A stretch of 28,083 nucleotides of DNA from Coriobacteriia bacterium (GTDB taxonomy: Bacteria > Actinomycetota > Coriobacteriia > Coriobacteriales > UBA8131), in the NCBI GenBank assembly GCA_009779015.1, contig WRFC01000001.1, forward strand, positions 1-28,083. Reading direction: 5' to 3'. Below are positions 1 through 7,536 of the stretch, piece after piece. The translations under genes and the position numbers were made by a program. The notes under the pieces were generated by a model. The model had not been told where the DNA came from, did no database searches, and was given only the letters and a program-made list of their open reading frames with translations. The first letter of the stretch is position 1; each line of letters starts with the position of its first letter.

Positions 1-78
1 GAGCACGAGCACGAGCACGAGCACGAGCATGACCACGAGCACGAACATGACCACGGACACGGGCACGACCACAGCCAT
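1..78 (+). repeat. Degenerate 6-bp tandem repeat (GAGCAC-like) encoding the (E/D/G)H tract
   Basis: gagcac x4, gagcat, gaccac, gagcac, gaacat, gaccac, ggacac, gggcac, gaccac, agccat. Confidence 0.85.
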
Positions 79-459
79 GGCGCCCTGCACGAATACATTG
101 ACGAAGAGCATGGCTACTCGATCAGCATCATGCAACACGACGAGGCGTTGGTAGCCTCCCTCGTAATCGATCTCCAGGGGGCGGCCGAAGACACCCAGAG
201 GCTCGTGGCTACGCGCCTCGAGCAACTGGTCGCCACACTCCAGGCTGACGATGTCATGATCGGCCATATCAAGGGGGCGCTCACCCGCTTGACCCCGCTG
301 GCGACATTCCATAGCGTCGGGGCCGGCCTCCAGACCCAGCAGTTCGAAGCCAAATCCTGCAAGCTCGAGCTGGCGGTCATCGTCTTCAATATCGGCGAGG
401 GCCGATTGCTCGAGATTGTCCAGCACGAGGCTGGTGAGCTGGCACATGCTGCCCATTGA
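1..459 (+). CDS. His-rich putative metal-binding protein, 5'-truncated by window edge
   Basis: Frame 1 is open from base 1: EHEHEHEHEHDHEHEHDHGHGHDHSHG...YSISIMQHDEAL...MIGHIKGAL..., stop at 459. The ORF track starts only at the internal Met at 130. Confidence 0.7.
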   Translation, partial: EHEHEHEHEHDHEHEHDHGHGHDHSHGALHEYIDEEHGYSISIMQHDEALVASLVIDLQGAAEDTQRLVATRLEQLVATLQADDVMIGHIKGALTRLTPLATFHSVGAGLQTQQFEAKSCKLELAVIVFNIGEGRLLEIVQHEAGELAHAAH

Positions 460-667: not shown

Positions 668-2293
668 ATGTCGAATCGCTTTCGAGAGGCTTTGGAGTCT
701 GGCGAGTTCGTCGTTACCTGCGAGTTAATCCCAGGTAGGGGCGCAAACGAGCCGTCTCAGGTGAAGGAGTACGATGCCGCAGTAGCAATTTACGGGACTG
801 GTCGGGTACACGCAATCTCCATCACCGACAACCCAGGGGGAAACCCAGCAATTGCTGCTGATGCCTTCGCTGATGAGCTGGAGAATCAGGGTGTCCCGAC
901 ACTGGTGCACTTCACTTGCAAAGACAAGAACCGTAACCAGATGCAAGCCCAGCTGTACTCCATGCAGCGCCGCGGCCTCGAGAACCTGCTCGTAATGTCT
1001 GGCGATTACGTGTATTCAGGCTGGGAGGGGCGTTCGCGGCCAGTCTTTGACCTCGACCCGGTCCAGGCTACGATGCTGGTCACCGACATGAACTCTGGCC
1101 TCGTCATCAAAGGCCCAAAAGGCGACACGCGCGAACAAGCGGCGCATTTCTACTCGGGTGCTTGTGTCAGCCCCTTCAAATGGACAGAGGCCGAGACGAT
1201 GACCCAGTATTGGAAGATGGAGAAAAAGCTCGCTGCGGGCGCTAACTTCATCATCCAACAGCTTGGCTATGATGCCCGGAAGATGGAAGAGCAGCTCTTC
1301 TATGTCCGTGAAAAGGGCTACGGCGACGTCCCCATGATCGCCAATATCTATATCATCTCCGCCGGTGTTGCCAAATTCATGAAGGGTGGCAACATCCCTG
1401 GCGGCTTCATGAGCGACGAGCTTCTCGGAATCCTTCAAGAAGAGGCAAAAGCCGAGGATAAGGGCAAGGCCACTCGCTTGCTCCGGGCCGCCAAGATGGT
1501 CGCGATCGCTCGCGGCCTCGGTTATGCTGGCGTGCATATCGGTGGCAATGGCCTGACTGCCGAGATCTTCAACACGATCCTTGACCAAGCTGACGAGATC
1601 CAGGACCAATGGCGCGATTGGGTCAAAGAGATCCATTATGGACAGCCGGACGGGTTCTATCTCTACAAGCCCGAGCTGGATGCCAACGGCGTCCCTACCG
1701 GGTTCAATACGCATGAGCGTGCCCCGCTGACCGACAGCTATCACAACAAAAAGAAGATCCTCAAGGGCTACGGCCTTTCCCGCGCCTTCCATTATTGGGT
1801 CTTGACGCCAAACAAGCGCTTCTATGGCATGCTCCGTTCGCGCATGGATGGCCTGGACCGCAAGAAGGGCGTGAACCGCGAACACGGCTTAGAGCACACC
1901 TGCAAGGCCATGCTCTATGGCTGCATGGATTGCGGAGACTGCGGCCTCTTGGTCACGAGCTACACCTGCCCGATGTCCGGATGCCCAAAGAGCCAGCGCA
2001 ATGGACCATGCGGTGGCGGTGCCGATGGCTGGTGCGAGGTCTACCCGAATGAGCGCTATTGCATCCATGTCAAGAACTACCATCGGCGCAAGAAGTTCAA
2101 CGAGCTTGTAGAGCTTGATTCGTTCATCACTCCCCCCAACAACTGGGACTTCTCCCACACATCCGGGTGGAGCAACTATACCCATGAAAGAGATAACACC
2201 TACGGGCGGACTTATCTCCAAACACCGGACCAGCGGCCGCAGGCTGCCAAAAATAAAAGGACCGGAGCCGAAAACGAGAGTAAGGAGAGTTAA
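668..2293 (+). CDS. metF: Methylene-THF reductase (MetF) with fused C-terminal MetV-like (MTHFR_C) Cys-rich domain
   Basis: TCELIPG (catalytic Glu), ISITDNPGG, HFTCKDKN, VMSGD, GANFIIQQLGYD; C-terminal CMDCGDC..CP..CPKSQRNGPCGG..CEV..C. ATG at 668 follows a GGGAG SD; the ORF-track start at 593 is probably too long. Confidence 0.9.
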   Translation: MSNRFREALESGEFVVTCELIPGRGANEPSQVKEYDAAVAIYGTGRVHAISITDNPGGNPAIAADAFADELENQGVPTLVHFTCKDKNRNQMQAQLYSMQRRGLENLLVMSGDYVYSGWEGRSRPVFDLDPVQATMLVTDMNSGLVIKGPKGDTREQAAHFYSGACVSPFKWTEAETMTQYWKMEKKLAAGANFIIQQLGYDARKMEEQLFYVREKGYGDVPMIANIYIISAGVAKFMKGGNIPGGFMSDELLGILQEEAKAEDKGKATRLLRAAKMVAIARGLGYAGVHIGGNGLTAEIFNTILDQADEIQDQWRDWVKEIHYGQPDGFYLYKPELDANGVPTGFNTHERAPLTDSYHNKKKILKGYGLSRAFHYWVLTPNKRFYGMLRSRMDGLDRKKGVNREHGLEHTCKAMLYGCMDCGDCGLLVTSYTCPMSGCPKSQRNGPCGGGADGWCEVYPNERYCIHVKNYHRRKKFNELVELDSFITPPNNWDFSHTSGWSNYTHERDNTYGRTYLQTPDQRPQAAKNKRTGAENESKES

Positions 2294-3091
2294 ATGATCA
2301 TCATCGCCGAAAAGATTAATGGATTTATCAAGAGGACGATGGAAGCCATCGAGGCAAAGGACGAGGCCTATCTGAAGGAACTCGCCGTCAAGCAGACCGC
2401 CGGTGGAGCCAGCTACATCGACATCTGCGCAGGCACCATGCCTGAAGTCGAGCGCGAGACCATGGAATGGTTGATCAACCTCGTACAAGACACTGTAGAC
2501 ACACCACTGAGCATCGACAGCTCCGACCCGCAGGTCATCGTCGATATGCTCCCGTTGGCCAAAAAGCCTGGCCTGGTCAACTCGATCTCCATGGAGGCCG
2601 GCAAGGCTGAGACCGTGTTCCCGGCAATCGAGGGCACAGAGTGGAAAGTCGTCGCACTGACCTGCGACAACGACGGAATTCCGGATACTGCCGAAGCTAA
2701 GTTCGAAATCGGCAAGAAGATCATTGAGCAGGCCGCCGAATACGGCATCGGCCTTGACCGCCTCTTCATCGATCCATGCGTAACCACGCTTGCGACCACC
2801 CAGAACTGCCTGGTCAGCTTTATCGGCGCCATGAAGCTCCTGCGCGCTGCTTATCCGGGCATTCAGTTCACATCCGGCCTTTCGAATATCTCTTTTGGTA
2901 TGCCTTACCGCAAGGCCATCAACATGCAGTTCCTCGCCCTCGCCCTTTATGAGGGTATGGACAGCGCTATCATCGATCCGACCTCTTCTGACATGCAGGC
3001 CGTTCTGCATGCAGTCGAAGCCCTGCTGGGCCATGATGAATACTGCATGAACTACCTGACCGCCTTCCGTAATGGCATGTTCGGCAAGTAA
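2294..3091 (+). CDS. acsE: Methyl-THF:corrinoid methyltransferase (AcsE/MeTr family, pterin-binding TIM barrel)
   Basis: MIIIAEKING, YIDICAG, PLSIDS, LVNSIS, LFIDP, GLSNISFGMP. Abuts the metF stop, with AGGAG SD. Confidence 0.88.
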   Translation: MIIIAEKINGFIKRTMEAIEAKDEAYLKELAVKQTAGGASYIDICAGTMPEVERETMEWLINLVQDTVDTPLSIDSSDPQVIVDMLPLAKKPGLVNSISMEAGKAETVFPAIEGTEWKVVALTCDNDGIPDTAEAKFEIGKKIIEQAAEYGIGLDRLFIDPCVTTLATTQNCLVSFIGAMKLLRAAYPGIQFTSGLSNISFGMPYRKAINMQFLALALYEGMDSAIIDPTSSDMQAVLHAVEALLGHDEYCMNYLTAFRNGMFGK

Positions 3092-3266: not shown

Positions 3267-4943
3267 ATGGCAGAAATTAAATCCGATATCGAGATCGCGC
3301 AATCTGTAACGCCGCGTCAGATCACCGATGTCGCGGCCGACCTGAACCTCGACAAAGAGTATTTCGAGCCCTATGGCTATTACAAAGCCAAGATCGATTT
3401 TAATGTTTTGAACAAGATCGACCGTCCCGAGGGAAAGCTGATCCTCGTCACAGCCATTACCCCAACGCCTGCTGGCGAAGGTAAGACCACGACCACCGTA
3501 GGCCTTTCAGACGGCCTGAAGAAGCTTGGCAAGAACGTTGTCGTCGCACTGCGCGAGCCCTCGCTCGGCCCGGTCTTCGGCGTCAAGGGCGGTGCCGCTG
3601 GCGGCGGTTGGTCTCAGGTCGTTCCGATGGAGGACATCAACCTGCACTTCACCGGTGACTTCCATGCCATCAGCGCAGCCAACAACCTGCTCGCAGCCTT
3701 GATCGACAACCACATCTATCAGGGCAATGCCCTGGACATCAACGTCCGCAACATCACCTGGAGGCGCTGCGTCGACATGAACGACCGTCAGCTGCGCTTT
3801 ATCGTTGACGGCCTCGGTGGCAAGTCCAATGGCGTTCCGCGCGAGGATGGCTACGACATCACCGTCGCTTCTGAGATCATGGCCATCTTCTGCCTGGCCA
3901 CCTCGGTCACCGACCTCAAAGAGCGCATTGCGCGCATCATCATCGGCTATAACCGTGCAGGCGAGCCTGTCACGGCCGGCCAGCTGAACGCCCAAGGCGC
4001 CATGGCTGCCCTCCTCAAAGATGCCTTGAAGCCGAACCTTGTCCAGACCCTCGAGGGCACACCGGCCTTCGTCCATGGCGGCCCCTTCGCCAATATCGCA
4101 CATGGCTGCAACTCCATCATCGCCACCCGCATGGCCTTGAAGCTCGGCGATTATGCCGTCACAGAGGCTGGCTTTGGCGCTGACCTCGGTGCTGAGAAGT
4201 TCCTGGACATCAAGTGCCGTGTTGCTGGCCTGAAGCCTTCTGCTGTCGTCATCGTCGCCACCGTCCGTGCCCTCAAGATGCACGGTGGCAAGCCGAAGAC
4301 CGAGCTGAACACCGAGGACCTGGTAGCCCTGAAGGCCGGCCTCCCCAACCTGCTTCAACACGTCTCGAATATCACAGACGTCTTCCATCTGCCGGCAGTC
4401 GTGGCCATCAATGCCTTCCCAACAGATACCGCAGCTGAGCTCCAGCTGGTCGAAGACGAGTGCAAGGCCCTCGGCGTCAATGCCGTTCTGGCTGAGCATT
4501 GGGCAAAGGGTGGAGAAGGCGCCCTCAAGCTGGCCGAAGAAGTCATTCGCGTGACTGACGAGCCCAATAACTTCACGCAGTCCTATCCGCTCGATATGAG
4601 CATCGAGGATAAGATCAACGCCATCGCCACAAAGATCTATCATGCAGACGGTGTGGACTATACCCCGCAAGCCAAGGAGCAGGCGAAAGTCCTGACCAGC
4701 CTCGGCTTTGACAAGCTCCCGATCTGCATGGCCAAGACACAGTACTCATTCTCTGACAATATGGCCCTTTTGGGTGCCCCCAAGGGCTTCAGGGTCACCG
4801 TACGCAACCTCAAGGTCTCGGCCGGCGCTGGTTTCATCGTCGCACTGACAGGCGAGATTATGACGATGCCTGGCCTGCCCAAGCTGCCTGCGGCTGAGAA
4901 GATCGATGTCGATGCCAGTGGCGTGATCTCAGGACTGTTCTAA
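3267..4943 (+). CDS. fhs: Formate--tetrahydrofolate ligase
   Basis: [68 protein letters not shown]; 558 aa. Confidence 0.98.
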
Positions 4944-4945
4944 TA

Positions 4946-5581
4946 ATGGACACTGCGTTCACAAAACGCTCCTGCGAAGACTTCGTTGATGTCCTCGCAT
5001 CGGCTGCACCGGTGCCCGGTGGCGGCGGCGGCTCAGCATTGGCTGGTGCGCTTGGCACCGCCCTTGGCAACATGGTCGGATCACTGACTGTCGGTAAGCC
5101 AAAGTTTGCTGATGTCGAGGCCGATATGATCGAGCTCAAAGCAAAGTGCGACGACTTGCAAAGACGATTGCTTGACTTGGTGGCCGCAGATGCCGAGTCT
5201 TTTCAGCCTCTCTCCAAGGCCTATGGCCTGCCCAAAGAGACAGAAGAGGAGAAGGCGCATAAGGCCGAAGTAATGGAGGCCTGTCTGCGTGAGGCTTGTT
5301 CTGTGCCGATCGCGATCATGGACGCCTGCTGCGAGGCCATCGATGTACACGAGCAATTTGCCGCTAAAGGCACGCCGATCGCAATCTCAGATGTCGGCGT
5401 TGGCGTGAAGTTCTGCCAAGCTGCTCTACAAGGTGCAAGCCTGAACGTCTTTATCAATACGTCTTCAATGACTGACCGGGCTTACGCCCAAGAGGTCGAA
5501 GACAAGGCAAACAAGCTTCTGGCAGACTATGTGCCAAAAGCCGAATCGATCTTCCAGGACGTTGCTCGACGTTTTAAGTAA
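4946..5581 (+). CDS. fchA: Methenyl-THF cyclohydrolase (FchA; cyclodeaminase/cyclohydrolase family)
   Basis: FVDVLASAAPVPGGGGGSALAGALG, D-A-E-S-F, AISDVGVG, LNVFINT; 2 nt after the fhs stop. Confidence 0.88.
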   Translation: MDTAFTKRSCEDFVDVLASAAPVPGGGGGSALAGALGTALGNMVGSLTVGKPKFADVEADMIELKAKCDDLQRRLLDLVAADAESFQPLSKAYGLPKETEEEKAHKAEVMEACLREACSVPIAIMDACCEAIDVHEQFAAKGTPIAISDVGVGVKFCQAALQGASLNVFINTSSMTDRAYAQEVEDKANKLLADYVPKAESIFQDVARRFK

Positions 5582-5593
5582 ACTCTCGAACAG

Positions 5594-5628
5594 AAAAAGG
5601 GACATGCCCGGGCATGTCCCTTTTTTTT
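5594..5628 (+). terminator. Intrinsic terminator between fchA and folD (possibly bidirectional)
   Basis: AAAAA-GGGACATGC-CCGG-GCATGTCCC-T8; 5594-5625 is a perfect palindrome. Confidence 0.8.
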
Positions 5629-5651
5629 ACGAGGATAAGAAAGGAGCCAAT

Positions 5652-6503
5652 GTGGCTACGGTACTCAAAGGGGCTGAGGTGTCAGAAGCCCTGAACACGA
5701 AGATCATGGAAGAATCTGAGGCGCTGAAGGCCATGGGCGTCAACCCGACATTAGCGATCCTCCGGGTCGGCGAGCGCGGAGATGATATCTCTTATGAAAA
5801 GGGAGTGACCAAGCGTGCAGAGAAAGTCGGGGTGGCTATCAAGAACGTATTGCTCCCCGCAGATGTCGCTCAAGAAGTTTTAATTAAGGCTATTGAGGAC
5901 CTGAACGCGGACAAATCCGTTCATGGGGTCTTGATGTTCCGCCCGCTCCCAGATCACCTTGATGAAGACGTTGTGAGAAACATGCTCGAGCCGAGCAAGG
6001 ACATTGACGGCATTACCGATGCTTCGATGTCTGGGGTATTCGCAGGCATCCATACGGGTTTCGCACCTTGTACGCCATCCGCGTGCATGGAGATCCTTGA
6101 GCATTTTGGTGTTGACGCAAAGGGCAAGCATGCAGTGGTAGTCGGCCGCAGTCTTGTGGTTGGCAAACCTGCAGCCATGATGCTTTTAGACCGAAACGCC
6201 ACAGTCACTATCGCACACTCGCGGACAGCAGACCTCCCATCAGTCGTCCGTGAGGCTGATATCGTGATTGCTTGTGTCGGTCGCGCGAAAATGGTAGAGG
6301 CAAGCTACCTGAAACCTGGGCAGATTGTCATTGATGTGGGTATCAATGTCTTAGAGGATGGCTCGTTGTCTGGAGATGTTGACTTTGAGGCGGCTTCATC
6401 GATCGTCGAAGCCATCACGCCTGTCCCAGGCGGTGTCGGAGCCGTGACCACAAGCGTGAACTTAAAACATGTGGTCGAAGCTGCGCGCAATCAAAACAGT
6501 TAA
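5652..6503 (+). CDS. folD: FolD-family methylene-THF dehydrogenase, probably lacking cyclohydrolase activity
   Basis: KDIDG, PCTP, VVVGRSLVVGKP, AHSRT, VIDVGIN, GDVDF, ITPVPGGVG. GTG start at 5652 after AAGGAG; the ORF-track start at 5529 runs through the terminator. Confidence 0.93.
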   Translation: MATVLKGAEVSEALNTKIMEESEALKAMGVNPTLAILRVGERGDDISYEKGVTKRAEKVGVAIKNVLLPADVAQEVLIKAIEDLNADKSVHGVLMFRPLPDHLDEDVVRNMLEPSKDIDGITDASMSGVFAGIHTGFAPCTPSACMEILEHFGVDAKGKHAVVVGRSLVVGKPAAMMLLDRNATVTIAHSRTADLPSVVREADIVIACVGRAKMVEASYLKPGQIVIDVGINVLEDGSLSGDVDFEAASSIVEAITPVPGGVGAVTTSVNLKHVVEAARNQNS

Positions 6504-6633: not shown

Positions 6634-7536
6634 ATGGATGATAACGATATTATTAAGGAGATCAGGCAAGATGTCGCGGCCATTCGACCAGATGTTTTAG
6701 TGCCATCAGAAATCGTTGCAAAAGCCGAAGCGATCGGCCACGGAAAAGCCAATACAGAGTTCTTAAGGTTGGCTGTATTAGCGGTGATGGCCGGCTTGTT
6801 TGTCGGTATGGGCGGAATGTTCTTGCTCTTGATCAAATCAGATACGAGCCTCCCCTACTTTGCCAGCCAAATACTCGGTGGCCTTTGCTTTTGCCTAGCC
6901 CTTTTCTTGGTCGTAGCCGCCGGAGCCGAGCAGTTCGCAGGCAACACCTTGATGGTCGTCGGAAGCCTGTCCAAAAAATACAGCTGGGGCAGCCTTTTGC
7001 GGACTTGGGGCATTGTCTGGGTGTTTAACTTCGTTGGATCGCTGCTGCTGGTCTTCCTCCTCTTCTTTGCTGCCTATTGGAAGGCCGACGGAGGCGCCAT
7101 TGGGGTCGCTATGGTCACAGTCAGCCTAGACAAGATCGCTCAAGGTCAAGCCAGCCTGGGGCCGTCCGGCTGGGTGACTATCCTTTTTAAGGGCATTATG
7201 TGCAACTTCCTCTTTGGCCTGGCTGTTTGGATCGGTTACTCAGGACGCACCGTTGTCGACAAGCTGGCAGCTATCGTATTGCCAGTGACAGCATTCGTGG
7301 CCTGTGGCTTTGAGCACAGCGTCGCTAACATGTTCTTGCTTCCGATGGGGTGGCTGATCAAGGTCACTGGGGTCATCGACACCTCGGCCATCAGTGGCAT
7401 CAACATGCTGTCGGTTGGTGGGATCTTCTATAACATCTCTGCCGCCACAATCGGGAACATCATCGGTGGCGCTGGCCTGGTCGGGTTATCCTATTGGTTG
7501 GCCTACCGGAAGAGTCAGAAAGTAAAAAATTCCTAG
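6634..7536 (+). CDS. Formate/nitrite transporter (FNT, FocA/FdhC family) with non-canonical pore residues
   Basis: AVMAGLFVGMG, GAEQFAGN, GNxVGS-like NFVGS, KGIMCN..LAVW, FVACGFEHSVANM, TIGNIIGG; six hydrophobic segments; GGAGGA SD. Confidence 0.92.
   Translation: MDDNDIIKEIRQDVAAIRPDVLVPSEIVAKAEAIGHGKANTEFLRLAVLAVMAGLFVGMGGMFLLLIKSDTSLPYFASQILGGLCFCLALFLVVAAGAEQFAGNTLMVVGSLSKKYSWGSLLRTWGIVWVFNFVGSLLLVFLLFFAAYWKADGGAIGVAMVTVSLDKIAQGQASLGPSGWVTILFKGIMCNFLFGLAVWIGYSGRTVVDKLAAIVLPVTAFVACGFEHSVANMFLLPMGWLIKVTGVIDTSAISGINMLSVGGIFYNISAATIGNIIGGAGLVGLSYWLAYRKSQKVKNS

Follow-up and report, generated by a model that had tools for sequence, protein, structure and literature searches.

The first 28,083 nucleotides of contig WRFC01000001.1 from a Coriobacteriia bacterium (assembly GCA_009779015.1), analysed as a whole and hereafter called the window, encode near their start a single-chain methylenetetrahydrofolate reductase (MTHFR), here termed metF-V, in which a MetF barrel is followed by the C-terminal half of the cysteine-rich protein MetV. 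The explanation that fits best, with a probability of about 50 %, is that this protein is a single-chain relative of the type II MetFV enzymes, with an iron-sulphur (Fe-S) domain that exchanges electrons with a soluble carrier, and that the cell relies on it as its only MTHFR, in both directions; for the fused reductase itself we infer Fe-S content, flavin, partner and direction alike. What donates electrons to MetFV-type reductases in the cell, or accepts them, has long been missing from the energy balance of the Wood-Ljungdahl pathway. The single-chain form overturns nothing, and presents a more tractable system in which to establish the function of MetV. It lends itself to expression, metal analysis and structure determination, having a confident in silico fold and only the eight-cysteine module of MetV, and being the sole MTHFR of its hosts. 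Work on it could reveal both what the cysteine module binds and the partner with which electrons are exchanged.

Domain architecture and cysteine cluster

The metF-V open frame extends from position 593 to 2293 on the forward strand and comprises 566 amino acids (aa) when read from 593. Translation almost certainly starts at the ATG at position 668, since a GGGAG Shine-Dalgarno sequence precedes it and the N-termini of the homologues (M-x-N-R-F) match at this point, giving a 541 aa product (668-2293, + strand). The first-pass annotation had proposed a MetF barrel followed by a cysteine cluster, and both were recovered at the expected positions within this one open reading frame (ORF). Pfam comparison matched the MTHFR family PF02219 (63 bits; residues 29-288 of the 566 aa frame) and PF12225 (MTHFR_C/DUF5981; 82.7 bits, E-value 1.5e-23). 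The 541 aa chain was modelled using AlphaFold2 (AF2) with a mean predicted local distance difference test score (pLDDT) of 93.2 and a predicted template modelling score (pTM) of 0.94. This final model is based on an alignment of 98 sequences, as the cysteine domain only reached pLDDT values of 40-50 with 20 aligned sequences.

The MetF TIM-barrel domain covers aa 1-315 (668-1612, + strand). Model residues 3-310 superimposed on the Thermus thermophilus MTHFR (3apt_A) with a VIA-align Z-score of 26.6 and a root mean square deviation of 3.2 Å over 282 residues, and Foldseek likewise placed residues 3-310 as an MTHFR TIM barrel. Alignment to Escherichia coli MetF using hhalign paired the catalytic Glu28, Asp120 and Gln183 of the latter with Glu19, Asp113 and Gln198, of which Asp113 is invariant and the other two are at least 90 % conserved among 45 distant relatives. 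The catalytic half of the fused reductase thus looks intact, as judged from its sequence.

The barrel is followed by an adaptor of approximately ninety residues (aa 316-405; 1613-1882, + strand), delimited by alignment insertions and by hhalign comparison with split MetV, in which it has no counterpart. The adaptor contains no conserved cysteine and tolerates long low-complexity insertions in the relatives. The PF12225 domain, the homologue of the C-terminal half of MetV, occupies positions 1883-2146 (+ strand; placed at 1880-2146 by the whole-genome Pfam match). The remainder (2147-2293, + strand) forms a C-terminal tail particular to the fused family, which extends past both the Pfam domain and the MetV-aligned stretch and consists of a conserved motif (W..S.W..YTH.RDN, aa 493-510) and a variable end. 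Within this motif W493, S499, W501, R508 and D509 are invariant or nearly so in the 98 sequences. A sequence search of the PDB recovered no MetV-like chain, leaving the C-terminal part with no solved-structure match by sequence; the fold searches mostly reflected the barrel, and the C-terminal fold was effectively outside their reach.

The cysteine cluster spans positions 1901-2062 (+ strand), exactly from the codon of Cys412 (1901-1903) to that of Cys465 (2060-2062), and its spacing, CMDCGDC-x8-CP-x3-CPK-x4-GPCGG-x5-CEV-x6-C, agrees with the translation as previously reported. Nine of the twelve cysteines in the protein occur within these 54 residues (binomial P ~5e-11 at the cysteine frequency of the rest of the protein). 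Both the alignments and the residue count support the core of the cluster, with eight cysteines (419, 422, 425, 434, 439, 448, 456 and 465) invariant across 98 close and 45 distant relatives, even among proteins sharing only 26-56 % identity. The ninth cysteine, Cys412 just upstream, had been counted with the cluster; it is not conserved, and is mostly replaced by glycine in the relatives. The eight-cysteine arrangement includes a ferredoxin-like CxxCxxC...CP pattern. Many close relatives have an additional cysteine (CPKC) where metF-V carries Ser442; a defect at this site was considered and rejected, given that a cysteine is not conserved there across the wider family.

Relation to split MetV-MetF systems and known reductase classes

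MetV is usually a separate subunit in acetogens, as the first-pass annotation held and the literature confirms (PMC8760232, PMC8515935). A similar arrangement prevails among the Coriobacteriia, where PF12225 is present in 101/201 genomes, nearly always as a separate metV gene coding for a protein of ~220 aa, with metF directly downstream of metV in all 30 of the split loci sampled from other Coriobacteriia. Split MetV proteins (17 sequences) incorporate twelve invariant cysteines, four of which lie in an N-terminal domain of ~100 aa with the pattern CxxC...C...C, and eight in PF12225, where their spacing is identical to that in the fused reductase. Profile comparison of the fused family with split MetV aligned fused residues 381-497 with MetV residues 103-205 only (hhalign probability 98.5 %), so that of MetV only the C-terminal half is represented in the fused reductase. 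The description of metF-V as a MetF-MetV fusion is thus correct for the signature domain, but not for MetV as a whole. No conserved cysteine occurs between residues 85 and 418 in the alignments of the fused family. Survival of the MetV N-domain as a separate gene was also considered and rejected, with a profile search for this domain revealing no stand-alone copy in the genome of the host (G000), its nearest relative (G201) and two 99 % complete genomes carrying the fused gene (G085 and G173).

The order of the domains in the fused protein, MetF followed by the MetV C-terminal half, is the reverse of the metV-metF gene order in the split systems, on which ground a simple read-through fusion of the two neighbouring genes was rejected. 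Considering both this reversal and the limited identity of 28-35 % between the fused barrel and the MetF proteins of the split Coriobacteriia systems, the sequences indicate that the fused gene is not a recent read-through fusion. Among the split systems, two MetV subtypes could be distinguished, beginning MIVVRQKP...GCNTCAAV and MIITKPREW...GCGQCATV, respectively (loci L005-L034). In many of these loci the flanking ORF densest in cysteines resembles an HdrA/MvhD-like fused protein, as judged by cysteine motifs only.

Purified MetFV enzymes contain ~7-8 Fe per heterodimer, read as two [4Fe-4S] clusters, together with flavin mononucleotide, and accept reduced ferredoxin or viologens, but use NAD(P)H only together with an additional subunit (PMC8760232, PMC8515935, PMC8578170). 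The type II (2S) enzymes take reduced ferredoxin in vitro. The annotation of MetV includes Zn as a further ligand (PMC8760232). Since the four-cysteine N-domain can hold at most one centre, the iron content of the heterodimers implies that the eight-cysteine domain, which is retained in metF-V, would bind at least one [4Fe-4S] cluster. A cysteine domain binding Zn only is unlikely.

Published MTHFR classes comprise types I-IV or, in an alternative scheme, E. coli-type, 2S, 3S, 6S and X, with the single-chain form not listed in either (PMC8760232, PMC8515935). The single-chain form is abundant in databases and absent from the published typology. Among these classes, metF-V shares most with type II (2S) MetFV, as found in Clostridium ljungdahlii, C. 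formicoaceticum, Eubacterium callanderi and Thermoanaerobacter kivui: a MetF barrel, an eight-cysteine module containing NGPCGG, the absence of RnfC2, Hdr, Mvh and NuoEFG genes alongside, and adjoining fhs, fchA and folD genes. It differs from type II in that the fused form is one polypeptide, where the split enzyme consists of two with metV upstream of metF (PMC8515935), and in that it lacks the four-cysteine N-domain of MetV and has gained the adaptor and the conserved tail. Unlike type III MTHFR (MetFV-RnfC2), the fused locus has no gene for an RnfC-like, NADH-binding subunit alongside. The type IV (6S) enzyme of Moorella thermoacetica and Sporomusa ovata, MetFV-HdrABC-MvhD, with which we group the split metV-metF pairs beside HdrA/MvhD-like ORFs in other orders of the Coriobacteriia, shares the two catalytic modules, and the genome of the host also encodes HdrCBA-MvhD (together with FlxCBA), but hdrCBA and mvhD do not form part of the fused gene's cluster. 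Finally, the TIM barrel and the catalytic Glu, Asp and Gln are held in common with E. coli-type MetF (type I), from which metF-V is distinguished by low identity (16-22 %) and by ~225 extra residues, including the invariant eight-cysteine domain.

Electron partner and direction of the reaction

The first-pass annotation noted that no RnfC2, Hdr or Mvh genes are adjacent to metF-V, and none occur in the window, although the lack of an adjacent partner here is weak evidence, as only 592 bp of the contig precede the gene. Searches of further genomes gave the same result. No Hdr, Mvh or Flx homologue was found within 10 kb in 80 loci (tblastn with the HdrA, MvhD, FlxCBA and HdrBC of the host genome), and an RnfC-like family is absent from the recurrent neighbours in 79 loci. 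The absence of a dedicated partner beside the gene thus holds for the fused family. What did not stand is the use of this absence by itself as a pointer to a new acceptor, since the same trait defines type II (2S) MetFV. The 59 % of the host genome that is assembled gave no PF01512 match, and neither Rnf nor a NuoF-like gene was detected in it. The host does encode hdrC-hdrB, reaching the end of one contig (C117; L137:2672-4073), and hdrA-mvhD-flxC-flxB-flxA, from the first base of another (C42; L116:1-5271). Together these represent one cluster of the Flx-Hdr type, as found in the nearest relative, G201 (L123:4362-11408, - strand), the proteins of which are 75-87 % identical. In G201 the Hdr-Flx cluster is located ~11 kb upstream of metF-V on the same contig, in divergent orientation, with corrinoid-protein genes, a pair coding for a GltD-like protein and a FeFe hydrogenase, and CobW genes in between. 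Among fifty genomes carrying the fused gene (carriers), full-length MvhD is encoded in 24, compared with 2/49 genomes of three families of the same order without PF12225, these being related lineages and not independent samples. Rnf membrane subunits occur in 1/50 carriers and acetyl-CoA synthase (ACS) in 15/50. Neither MvhD nor ACS is encoded in the 99 % complete carriers G085 and G173, where the fused gene is nevertheless the only MTHFR. A partnership with Hdr-Flx is therefore possible in the lineage of the host, but is not a general rule across the carriers.

As a single-chain relative of type II MetFV, the fused reductase would pass electrons between the flavin site of its intact MetF barrel and one or more metal clusters in the eight-cysteine MetV half, to which the barrel is joined by the adaptor, and from there to a redox partner encoded away from metF-V. 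By analogy with type II (2S) MetFV, the likeliest partner would be a ferredoxin- or flavodoxin-like soluble one-electron carrier. The scarcity of Rnf and the restriction of full-length MvhD to about half of the carriers make a common soluble carrier the more likely universal partner. The enzyme would work in both directions, given that it is the organism's only MTHFR. The methyl group of methanol would be transferred via MtaB, a corrinoid protein and the co-translated methyltransferase to methyl-tetrahydrofolate (methyl-THF), part of which would be oxidised by the fused reductase and leave as formate, while the remainder would enter acetyl-CoA via carbon monoxide dehydrogenase/acetyl-CoA synthase (CODH/ACS).

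The host genome encodes a full CODH/ACS cluster, with two copies of cooC, acsA, an acsB-acsD fusion, acsC, RACo and DUF3786, and this pathway can also take methyl-THF to acetyl-CoA. The carbon may thus go to acetyl-CoA as well as to formate. The course of the module is therefore not bound to be set by the partner of the reductase, although this had been proposed. An Ech-type hydrogenase large subunit and a ferredoxin-like subunit are likewise encoded. In having an Ech-type hydrogenase, no Rnf found and a stand-alone MetFV, the host resembles T. kivui in all three respects (PMC8578170). A group-1(-like) NiFe hydrogenase large subunit is encoded beside a cytochrome b (Ni_hydr_CYTB; contig C6, L136:4838-7435, - strand), a pairing which implies a quinone pool in what is otherwise an organism of the Wood-Ljungdahl/Ech type. 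Within the CODH/ACS cluster the synthase beta subunit (CODH_A_N, CdhC and ACS_CODH_B_C domains) and a CdhD-type corrinoid Fe-S subunit form one frame of 1175 aa (contig C2, L004:10542-14069, + strand), and the corresponding frame of the nearest relative is also long (1161 aa). Just upstream of this cluster is a stand-alone 300 aa protein with a homocysteine S-methyltransferase domain (PF02574; C2, L004:4869-5771, + strand), possibly a split methionine synthase fed from the same methyl groups, with a 369 aa ORF without a Pfam match after it.

Several points weigh against a single-chain relative of type II that is served by ferredoxin. Oxidation of methyl-THF with ferredoxin is strongly uphill, and this carrier accounts much better for reduction than for oxidation, which is the direction that the gene context suggests; only the 15 carriers noted above were found to encode ACS. 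Lacking the MetV N-domain, the fused form may not match type II in its cofactors or in the surface used for docking. The host genome is 59 % complete, and a biochemical study of any fused member was not found in the literature searched, the coverage of which was incomplete, so that this counts as weak evidence. The earlier remark that oxidation of methyl-THF is uphill with NAD+ is thermodynamically sound and is debated in PMC13391211. In the carriers without ACS, the context reads as a route from methyl donor via methyl-THF to formate, a direction which calls for an acceptor at ~-200 mV or above, unless the downstream steps pull strongly as in Acetobacterium woodii, which oxidises methyl-THF with NAD+ by holding methylene-THF low (PMC13391211).

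These considerations leave room for other partners. The reductase may act with HdrCBA-MvhD-FlxCBA in trans, as a type IV-like, NADH-linked bifurcating or confurcating system coupling methyl-THF oxidation to another redox reaction, which is a possible but doubtful explanation. The presence of hdrCB and hdrA-mvhD-flxCBA in the host genome, the location of the G201 cluster on the metF-V contig, the higher frequency of MvhD among carriers and the truncation of the contig, which weakens the argument from non-adjacency, all speak for it. Nevertheless, none of the 80 loci has such genes within 10 kb, MvhD was not found in about half of the carriers, among them two 99 % complete genomes with the fused gene as sole MTHFR, the Hdr/Mvh-linked systems of other Coriobacteriia use split MetV with the N-domain that is missing here, and the contrast between carriers and non-carriers is one between related lineages. 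Somewhat less probable is that the Fe-S domain delivers electrons to a higher-potential acceptor, such as menaquinone via a membrane protein, rubredoxin or a high-potential flavodoxin, which would render methyl-THF oxidation downhill. The 35/50 carriers without ACS, with methyl-to-formate clusters that need an acceptor at or above the potential given above, would be accounted for, a quinone link has been proposed for the Moorella type IV enzyme (PMC13391211), and UbiA-family prenyltransferases occur in four of five carriers checked, although a UbiA match does not single out menaquinone synthesis. The recurrent neighbours, however, include no membrane or quinone-binding protein, the AF2 model of the fused reductase shows no predicted membrane segment, and the A. 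woodii case indicates that such an acceptor is not strictly required. For a menaquinone-linked chain in particular, as proposed in the first-pass annotation, the cytochrome b-linked hydrogenase of the host is the only relevant fact, with no direct support beyond it.

That metF-V is an ordinary housekeeping, NAD(P)H-dependent MTHFR like E. coli MetF, with the cysteine domain as a structural Zn module, appears improbable. In its favour, no second MTHFR was found in any of the carriers checked, among them 99 % complete genomes without ACS, so that any methionine synthesis must also depend on the fused gene; the residues used for catalysis by E. coli MetF are retained, and Zn forms part of the MetV annotation (PMC8760232). 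Against this stand the invariance of eight cysteines, with their ferredoxin-like pattern, across highly divergent proteins, the Fe-S content of all purified MetFV enzymes and their failure to use NAD(P)H without an extra subunit (PMC8760232, PMC8515935, PMC8578170), a barrel nearer to MetFV-type MetF than to E. coli MetF, and the location of the gene in catabolic one-carbon clusters in most loci. A broader proposal, that single-chain MetF-MetV(C) represents a fifth functional MTHFR class with an acceptor of its own (a higher-potential soluble carrier, a quinone route or Hdr-Flx in trans) which makes methyl-THF oxidation feasible, can only be put forward tentatively and is rather unlikely. If true, this class would underpin widespread methyl-to-formate catabolism in the gut Coriobacteriales of termites, ruminants and humans, most of which are non-acetogenic.

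Distribution and gene neighbourhood of the fused family

The single-chain combination of PF02219 and PF12225 is old, widespread and already named in databases, where metF-V is a typical member of the family 'methylenetetrahydrofolate reductase C-terminal domain-containing protein', with no structural difference: both domains occur in one chain of ~500-600 aa, MetF preceding PF12225. The top 120 database matches all carry both domains and are mostly labelled as Coriobacteriia, Coriobacteriales or Eggerthellaceae metagenome-assembled genomes (MAGs). A scan of one genome per species identified fused relatives in 164 genomes; the best 80 of these are almost all gut MAGs of termite, ruminant and human origin, along with a few bins labelled Desulfosarcina, Smithella and Bacillota, the closest being a termite-gut MAG (77 % identity). 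At an E-value of 1e-30 or lower, 213 representatives of 50 %-identity clusters were recovered, many of them full-length at 26-45 % identity, and Pfam confirms the two-domain architecture in distant members. The fused gene is the only MTHFR homologue in the six carriers checked (G000, G085, G173, G201, G202 and G214). Two further fused proteins (P0350 and P0353) carry an N-terminal cNMP-binding domain, with an ABC ATPase domain also present in P0353. One contig of G173 (C25, 13286 bp; L133 = L072) is identical to its own reverse complement, a palindromic assembly artefact owing to which the reductase appears twice in that genome. The family marks a large uncultured group of gut Coriobacteriales with methyl-transfer and formate-producing clusters, and bears on the turnover of methanol, methoxy groups and methylamines and the supply of formate and H2 in termite, rumen and human guts.

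Directly downstream of metF-V in the window is a pterin-binding methyl-THF:corrinoid methyltransferase (2294-3091, + strand; PF00809, NCBIfam PRK07535 323 bits), the start of which overlaps the metF-V stop (TAAATG), indicating translational coupling. This overlap, together with three natural, Pfam-confirmed triple fusions of MetF, PF12225 and Pterin_bind (P0270, P0351 and P0354; 825-837 aa), argues that the reductase and methyltransferase work together. The rest of the methyl branch follows as fhs, fchA and folD (3267-6503, + strand; Pfam), and Pfam matches further identify a formate/nitrite transporter, an AraC regulator, mtaB, 5-formyl-THF cyclo-ligase and the corrinoid reductive activase RACo (- strand) between positions 6634 and 13327.

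Neighbours in 79 related loci were called with a codon log-odds ORF caller trained on the Pfam-verified genes of the window. The most common are fhs (51/79 loci), fchA (41/79) and folD (35/79), followed by the pterin methyltransferase (33/79; directly downstream in 23) and a corrinoid protein (23/79; directly upstream in 17). Less frequent are RACo (17/79), the formate channel (15/79), AraC (14/79) and LysR-B12 (11/79) regulators, DUF2284 and GTP cyclohydrolase I (10/79 each), and UroD-type (6/79) and MttB-type (5/79) methyltransferases.

Upstream of metF-V, the ORF at positions 1-459 (+ strand), which is cut by the contig end and has no Pfam match of its own, probably represents the C-terminal half of a CobW-family GTPase, as suggested by its histidine-rich sequence (EHEHEH...DHGHGH). 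A cobW N-terminal, nucleotide-binding domain ends another contig of the host genome (C24, 8484-9104; L138:2985-3605), after two corrinoid-protein genes, and CobW-like genes are found directly upstream of metF-V in the nearest relative. A GltD/NuoF-FeS-like flavoprotein (Pyr_redox_2, Fer4_20 and NADH_4Fe-4S domains) paired with a FeFe hydrogenase is encoded a few genes from the reductase in 5-6/79 loci (e.g. L060:15449-19098, + strand); in the nearest relative its distance upstream of metF-V is 6 kb (G201 contig C40, L123:12882-16630). This pair may provide an H2 outlet for reducing equivalents.

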